Positions 33,277-33,431 of a DNA stretch of 64,000 bases are shown one piece after another. How positions within the stretch are numbered: the stretch's first letter is position 1; every line of letters starts with the position of its first letter. The notes beneath the pieces are model-generated. The model saw only the letters and a list, made by a program, of their open reading frames with translations, was not told the origin of the DNA and searched no databases. A program made the position numbers and the translations under genes. Source of the DNA: Escherichia coli. Lineage in GTDB: Bacteria; Pseudomonadota; Gammaproteobacteria; Enterobacterales; Enterobacteriaceae. The stretch is from assembly GCF_003334315.1 (NCBI RefSeq), contig NZ_QOWR01000018.1, one strand, 5' to 3'.

Positions 33277-33325
33277 TTAAAGGAAAAGTTGCTGTCTGAT
33301 TTTCATTAGTCTAACATTTTAAATG

Positions 33326-33354
33326 TTGGAATCGCAACGTAGTTATTATCATAT
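33326..33354 (+). promoter_or_regulatory. Candidate late promoter pR' (Q utilisation region)
   Basis: TTGGAA -35-like hexamer, 17-bp spacer, TCATAT -10-like hexamer, directly downstream of Q and upstream of a terminator. Confidence 0.35.
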
Positions 33355-33376
33355 AACAGCTTGTTTCCTGATTTAG

Positions 33377-33403
33377 CCAGCCTCCCCAAAGGCTGGTTTT
33401 TTT
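33377..33403 (+). terminator. Rho-independent terminator (tR'-like)
   Basis: CCAGCC-TCCCCAAA-GGCTGG followed by TTTTTTT. Confidence 0.6.
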
Positions 33404-33431
33404 CTAATAAGTATCATTTCGGGTGGGGATT

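Follow-up and report, generated by a model that had tools for sequence, protein, structure and literature searches.

Organization of the locus

The sequence analysed (referred to below as the window) is a stretch of 64 000 nucleotides of Escherichia coli DNA (assembly GCF_003334315.1, contig NZ_QOWR01000018.1) containing a Qin-like prophage with dicB, hokD, ydfU, essQ, rzpQ and cspI. The gene for the antiterminator Q is located on the plus strand at 32899-33276 and encodes a 125-residue protein of the Q21 family, which matched Pfam entry PF06530 over model positions 1-118 of 118 (E = 7.8e-51) and the solved Q21 structures 6P18/6JNX (E = 5e-9); the PF06530 antiterminators are the Q21 family in Yin and Ebright (PMC9388147). 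Sequence identity is 76-79% to Q of 933W and 83% to DLP12-type Q (the QuuD-like Q of phage Turner). The base-reading residues of Q21 (S93, K94 and H95) are not conserved in this Q, and its DNA specificity should therefore differ.

A blc-type lipocalin lipoprotein gene (33432-33956, minus strand; NCBIfam NF007786 Blc, E = 6e-94, above the curated cut-off) is convergent with Q. It is followed on the plus strand by a YbgA-family gene (34149-35108), which was assigned from the PGAP annotation of an identical locus and matched NCBIfam NF007549 below the cut-off (E = 5e-56), and by a gene for a YdeO/GadX-like regulator of the AraC family (35506-36228; NCBIfam YdeO, E = 1e-32, below the cut-off). The lysis region (36419-38333, plus strand) was assigned from the list of open reading frames and the annotation of an identical locus (essQ, ydfR, rzpQ); it comprises, all on the plus strand, a holin gene (36419-36634) and then a DUF1327 reading frame, a lysozyme gene (37306-37839) and an Rz-like gene (37836-38333). 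The lysozyme gene is intact in the window; an IS4-family element splits its counterpart in the otherwise identical strain ECCWS199 (L001:15748-17619).

The intergenic region next to Q was found in 1115 of the 5426 complete E. coli genomes, BL21 and HS included, as well as in database entries submitted as complete phage genomes (Lambda_2E9 and its relatives, and IdasGreatGrand). Comparison of the window with Lambda_2E9 gave one block of ~93% identity that extends from the start of Q to the end of the ybgA-like gene.

Terminator downstream of Q

An intrinsic terminator is located on the plus strand at 33375-33403, ~100 bp past the Q stop codon. It consists of a 9-bp stem (arms 33375-33383 and 33390-33398), a 6-nt loop (CCCCAA) and a run of seven T at 33397-33403, and was the best match in a terminator scan of the 31-36 kb region (nine pairs, five of them G-C). 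The fold energy is -14.2 to -14.9 kcal/mol (z = -2.6 to -3.4). A stricter scan (stem of at least 8 bp, at least 5 G-C pairs and at least 6 T in 8) was run over the 64 kb with 20 block shuffles as the control; five sites passed on the plus strand and two on the minus strand, and none in the shuffles (n = 20). The sequence at 33375-33403 has the features of a rho-independent terminator (G+C-rich hairpin, U tract directly after it and location at the end of a transcription unit), and it is a genuine one, with a signal well above chance. The strong intrinsic terminator reported at this place by the first-pass annotation, with its 9-bp stem and T7 run, is thus upheld. Among 18 haplotypes the stem does not vary and the length of the T run alone differs. 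Read on the minus strand, the hairpin has no U tract after it, the adjoining sequence being CUAAAUCAGG.

Positions 33354-33403 aligned locally to 933W (L002:3160-3214), that is, to the last ~54 nt of the small RNA StxS, with a score of 43; the top score in 500 shuffles was 26 (0/500 reached 43). The StxS-homologous part consists of the terminator plus the ~20 nt preceding it, and its counterpart in 933W ends in the second annotated terminator of that 933W region. By this alignment, the hairpin after Q is a homologue of a true tR', with which the pR' leader of 933W-type phages ends. Type B loci and phage cdtI likewise have a plus-strand terminator directly 3' of Q and then a minus-strand gene; in DLP12 a cluster of hairpins takes the post-Q position instead.

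Promoter candidates between Q and blc

The first-pass annotation had placed a sigma-70-like promoter, TTGGAA-17-TCATAT (33326-33354, plus strand), upstream of the terminator. The letters are present as described: TTGGAA occupies 33326-33331, beginning 50 bp beyond the stop codon of the PF06530 antiterminator gene (so that the site does lie directly after Q), the spacer is 17 bp and TCATAT is found at 33349-33354, with the hairpin beginning 20 bp farther on. The reading of these hexamers as a promoter did not hold, however. When scored with a simple weight matrix for the -35 element, the -10 element and the spacer, the pair reached 4.67 bits, a value equalled or bettered by 1777 of the 127,920 positions in the window, and it was not among the sites listed by a sigma-70 promoter scan. 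An A at -11 is near-essential in the sigma-70 -10 element, and TCATAT has a C in its place. The proposed promoter is no better than chance and is not credible.

Two other hexamer pairs in the same intergenic region scored higher. The overlapping pair TTGGAA-15-TATCAT reached 8.6 bits with a poor spacer (rank 154 in the window), and TTGCTG-17-TAACAT (33289-33317, plus strand) reached 9.2 bits (rank 100 in the window), the top matrix score within this region; a homologue of the latter was sought elsewhere and none was found. Given these two pairs of moderate score, some transcription could conceivably start in the intergenic region. A near-perfect palindrome (TCTAACATTT/AAATGTTGGA) at 33310-33330 overlaps the proposed -35 element.

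The 28-mer GTTGGAATCGCAACGTAGTTATTATCAT (33325-33352, plus strand) is a weak look-alike of the pR' core of this Q subfamily, which is described in the next section. On a matrix for that core it scored 2.7 bits (rank 53 of ~128,000), compared with 40.5 bits for a site at 35156, the latter value being partly circular because three of the nine cores from which the matrix was built are of this locus type. The chance of a match as good as that of the 28-mer within 100 bp after Q is roughly p = 0.04. AATCG and TATnAT within it are in register with the conserved core, and the 22 nt between the 28-mer and the hairpin correspond to a cassette-like distance to the tR' homologue.

The remaining elements of a Q-responsive site were also sought. 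The subfamily spacer motif, wwCGTAAAAA after TTTACR, had no match near 33300-33410; reading of 33353-33380 for a pause hexamer (A at 2, T at 6; TAnnnT-like) gave none; and no 8-bp direct-repeat Q site was found in 33289-33352, where the one repeat was a 14-mer, probably present by chance (TTGCTGTCTGATTT and TTGTTTCCTGATTT at 33289 and 33361, the copies being 72 bp apart). The architecture for Q-mediated antitermination claimed for this site is represented by its Q gene and its terminator, but not by the promoter named, a Q-binding spacer of the subfamily type or a pause element.

The left 80 bp, from the Q stop codon to the aligned block at 33354, showed no significant local similarity to the 933W pR' region or to the body of StxS, and comparison of the same 80 bp with the Q-downstream sequence of seven other locus types gave nothing significant. 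TATCAT at 33347-33352, which falls in register with the 933W -10 element in a global alignment, was considered as its homologue and was dropped after local alignment against shuffled sequences. Polymorphism in the 18 haplotypes touches every candidate -10 element in some lineage and does not discriminate among the candidates; at position 33302, all four bases occur among these otherwise near-identical intergenic sequences.

A further promoter-like sequence, TTTACA-16-TATTAT, is located inside the Q coding sequence (33096-33123) and scored 11.5 bits, within the top ten of the window. Its first hexamer is TTTGCA or TCTGCA in other alleles. A start there would yield an RNA of ~275 nt ending at the 33403 terminator.

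Conserved promoter of the Q subfamily

The promoter motif of the subfamily, TTTAC(A/G)-wwCGTAAAAA..-TATnnT, coincides with the mapped pR' of the Stx2 phage Sp5 (933W-type), whose sequence matches that of 933W at this place. The pattern TTTACGwwCGTAAAAA, which was taken from other loci, had a sole match in the window, with one mismatch, at 35156. The sequence there, TTTACA-ATCGTAAAAACTACGC-TATGAT (35156-35183, plus strand; predicted start A35190), is a putative pR'-type promoter; it reached 11.5 bits on the weight matrix, within the top ten of the window, and was joint first in a regional promoter scan. It sits ~1.88 kb downstream of Q, beyond the 33375 terminator and after the blc and ybgA-like genes.

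The motif was found once downstream of Q in every relative of at least 62% identity, among the loci with enough downstream flank. Its offset from the Q stop codon is -12 bp in 933W and a Morganella phage, about +595 bp in type B, +780 bp in POCJ13, +1831 bp in type C, +1878 to +1881 bp in the locus type of the window (+1791 bp in one locus) and +2856 bp in DLP12, where it lies ~170 bp before essD. Lambda_2E9 and its relatives and IdasGreatGrand (an isolate from swamp mud) carry the same module, in which TTTACA-16-TATGAT is tied for first place in the promoter scans. The window and Lambda_2E9 agree at 26 of the 28 bp of the pR' core, as against roughly half of the positions in the immediate flanks.

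From the analogy with phage 21 and the covariation with Q, we infer that the spacer of the subfamily promoter is a Q-binding element. The Q of Stx2_EH2246 is only 50% identical, and its locus has kept the transcribed region with a different spacer, a pattern that would follow from binding of Q to the spacer, as in phage 21. Stx2_EH2246 carries an 8-bp direct repeat, GTATGTCA GTATGTTA (L088:1282-1340), immediately before this conserved transcribed region; the repeat is a candidate Q-binding element of the diverged Q.

The conserved transcribed region (AAGAGTGGTTACWTYGYCAC) and a proximal hairpin follow the promoter in 933W, POCJ13, DLP12 and types B and C. Both are absent from the locus type of the window (35184-35260; L090:7983-8060; L091:7984-8060), in which AGTG at +1 to +4 alone is kept, and a search for AGAGTGGTTACWTTGCCAC across the window with up to three mismatches gave no match. 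A clear -10-like pause element was not seen after promoters of the 35156 type, the nearest sequences being TATAAA at +13 to +18 in the window and TACAGT at +6 to +11 in Lambda_2E9. Because both the conserved transcribed region and a clear pause element are missing, Q loading at 35156 is not secure.

A second intrinsic terminator, ACGCCAGAATAATTGCTGGCGT + TTTTCTTTTT (36297-36328, plus strand), is located ~90 bp before the holin gene and is the candidate functional tR'. No convincing terminator was found on the plus strand in 35190-36297, where the scan gave only a weak hairpin inside the 3' end of the AraC gene (36188-36207). In Lambda_2E9 and IdasGreatGrand the counterpart of 36297-36328 is the sole plus-strand terminator match between the promoter and the holin gene. 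The YdeO-like gene (35506-36228) lies between the pR'-type promoter and this terminator, the only strong one on the plus strand before the holin gene.

Comparison with known systems

For the Stx2 phage Sp5 (933W-type), Sy, Lan and Tree (2020; PMC7547250) showed by dRNA-seq and Term-seq that pR' starts the 258-nt StxS, which ends at the homologous terminator; RNase E cleaves StxS at +173, at the site GU|AUU (PMC7547250). The pR' start was placed at L002:2957 by counting back 258 nt and lies 7 nt after the TATCAT of TTTACG-16-TATCAT; this placement was confirmed by position +173, which falls on the reported RNase E site at L002:3129. The first hairpin after pR' in 933W (L002:2983-3005, +27 to +49, with a U7 tail) resembles a strong terminator, and DLP12 and types B and C have no terminator other than this first hairpin ahead of their lysis genes; the Sp5 product nonetheless ends 258 nt out, at the second terminator, past the first hairpin.

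The window shares with the pR'-StxS-tR' arrangement of 933W, Sp5 and Sp15 the subfamily of Q and a homologous terminator together with the ~20 nt before it. In the 933W-type arrangement, unlike the window, the terminator lies 258 nt downstream of a mapped pR' that overlaps the Q stop codon; relative to 933W, neither the conserved promoter nor the conserved initial transcribed region is present at the site after Q in the window, and the StxS body of ~205 nt is missing there as well. StxS is a 258-nt pR' transcript that is processed to a target-pairing form of ~74 nt, and the site does not correspond to such an RNA, ~54 nt being homologous. StxS binds Hfq and regulates rpoS and stx1B; its rpoS site is shared with RprA, DsrA and ArcZ (PMC7547250), and a weak Rfam match to RprA in the StxS region of 933W (L002:3102-3218; 28.1 bits, E = 0.4) is consistent with this common site. 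An Rfam search of 31000-38500 and of the 933W StxS region gave sub-threshold matches only, namely Betaproteobacteria toxic sRNA (28.6 bits; gathering score 50), isrK (25.7 bits; 50) and RprA (28.1 bits; 70), and Rfam holds no StxS family. The weak isrK match (31026-31107) lies directly after hokD, with a terminator (31086-31103) at its end.

Phage 21 (PMC6606751; bioRxiv 10.1101/651190) likewise has a Q that belongs to PF06530. A locus of the phage 21 type has a -35 element, a spacer with TGAGCA twice (about -25 and -17; PMC6606751), a -10 element, TAAGCT at +2 to +7 and a terminator within ~60 bp of Q, a compact plan of the kind envisaged by the first-pass annotation; unlike phage 21, the window has no recognisable direct-repeat Q site or -10-like pause element in 33289-33375. 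The closest likeness in gene order is to DLP12 of K-12 (quuD-nmpC-promoter-essD), where cargo separates Q from the conserved promoter just upstream of the lysis genes and the regulatory region of the lysis operon has been handled as a separate unit (PMC7918800). In DLP12, the promoter is still followed by the conserved transcribed region and the proximal hairpin; in their place, the window has an AraC-family gene and a different terminator. The pR'-6S RNA-tR' unit of lambda is alike in plan, in that it combines a Q gene and a constitutive late promoter with an early terminator that precedes the late genes; unlike the Q of the window, lambda Q comes from an unrelated family (PF03589), and there is no sequence in common.

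Interpretation

The site after Q is probably an ordinary terminator that closes the Q transcription unit, with the late promoter and the action of Q located at 35156-35183. The terminator signal, the homologies and the place and conservation of the promoter motif are observations, and the choice of promoter, the binding of Q and read-through are predictions. In this explanation, the 33375-33403 terminator would end a transcription unit whose last gene is Q and would keep non-antiterminated polymerase from an antisense run into the convergent blc gene; by descent it would be the tR' of a 933W-type pR' leader, and what precedes it may be a decayed relic of pR'. The proposed functional order along the plus strand is Q, terminator (33375-33403), blc (minus strand), ybgA-like gene, promoter (35156-35183), YdeO-like AraC gene, terminator (36297-36328) and the holin, lysozyme and Rz genes, blc and ybgA being placed between Q and its promoter as nmpC is in DLP12 of K-12. 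Q would act through the promoter and the putative Q-binding spacer at 35156-35183. Polymerase starting at this promoter would transcribe the YdeO-like AraC gene and terminate at 36297-36328 unless Q were loaded, in which case transcription would proceed into the holin, lysozyme and Rz genes. A Q-loaded polymerase that starts at 35156 would never meet the 33375 hairpin. Points against this reading are the insecure Q loading at 35156, the two intergenic hexamer pairs of moderate score, and the 28-mer at 33325-33352 (rank 53), which is followed by a true tR' homologue.

The claims of the first-pass annotation on downstream genes would change as follows. Its proposal that the lysis genes stand behind a terminator that Q must override is retained, with the terminator at 36297-36328 and not at 33375; a promoter at 35156 would make these genes Q-dependent. 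The YbgA-like gene, which it had made dependent on Q read-through, lies upstream of the 35156 promoter, so that it would be independent of Q, as would blc. The AraC-like gene, for which it had claimed the same dependence, lies between this promoter and the next terminator and so would be expressed without Q. Its transcription from the late promoter would extend to lysogens: pR' is constitutive in lambda and is predicted to be so in Stx phages, and if the 35156 promoter is constitutive as well, lysogens would make the YdeO-like regulator in the absence of Q. Its gene would then take the place that is occupied by the StxS RNA in Stx phages.

For annotation, this means that the late promoter should not be assumed to lie next to Q in lambdoid prophages of this Q subfamily; the 16-base motif TTTACRwwCGTAAAAA would locate it, up to ~3 kb from Q and with cargo genes between. 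No part of the system is of a new kind, the terminator being intrinsic, Q a member of the Q21 family, and pR' and tR' of the Stx-phage type; DLP12 already offers an example of cargo genes between Q and its promoter. The arrangement predicted here, in which a regulator gene lies between the late promoter and the terminator, may be previously undescribed.

In the model of the first-pass annotation, a constitutive sigma-70 promoter in 33289-33354 gives transcripts that stop at 33403, and Q loads there and reads through blc (antisense), ybgA, the AraC gene and the lysis genes. Location directly after Q would agree with 933W and phage 21, but the hexamers named are at chance level and lack the -11 A. 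The terminator is homologous to a real tR' and the 28-mer weakly resembles the subfamily pR', with a canonical cassette-like spacing of -10 element, ~22 nt and hairpin; set against these points are the absence of the conserved CGTAAAAA spacer and of a TAnnnT-type pause element in 33353-33380, and the far better cognate site at 35156. If a promoter farther upstream were used, the sole -10-like elements (TATTAT/TATCAT) would fall at +21 to +29, seemingly too far, judging by what PMC9388147 says of long RNA, for the closed nozzle of a Q21-type protein, through which a short nascent RNA is threaded. Their use as a pause element was considered unlikely, the RNA at such a pause being ~30-35 nt. We regard the model as improbable. 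Still more improbable is that the hairpin terminates the minus-strand blc gene and follows Q incidentally. The hairpin is located 33 nt past the blc stop codon and no other hairpin was found after blc, but its T run is on the plus strand, the stem is followed by CUAAAUCAGG on the minus strand, where the scan gave no terminator, and the same hairpin with the same polarity serves as a plus-strand terminator in 933W, where no minus-strand gene follows.

A small-RNA gene or an sRNA derived from the 3' UTR is a possibility that we consider unlikely, though worth entertaining. The site would then give an RNA of 45-90 nt that ends at the StxS-type terminator and acts in trans like StxS, independently of Q; that its source would be a weak promoter or the processing of Q mRNA is put at the same level, and this reading is compatible with the preferred explanation of an ordinary terminator after Q. 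Its homology is to the Hfq-bound 3' part of StxS (PMC7547250), the predicted RNAs of 47 nt and 82 nt fold so that an unpaired 5' part precedes a clean terminator hairpin and its U tail, and the region is present in the 1115 of 5426 complete genomes given above. Against it, the evidence for a promoter is weak, and Rfam gave no family match, the sole score of 28.6 bits (gathering score 50) being to an unrelated sRNA. Of StxS, only the final ~54 nt are retained, and the initial ~30 nt of the processed form lack an equivalent; the missing segment presumably includes the rpoS-pairing part, to judge by the rpoS leader. A live shortened relative of StxS, that is, an Hfq-dependent RNA of 45-90 nt that is made from a weak promoter or cut from the 3' UTR of Q mRNA and has targets unlike those of StxS, is doubtful to a somewhat greater degree. 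If true, such an RNA would be carried by about a fifth of complete E. coli genomes, among them BL21 and HS.
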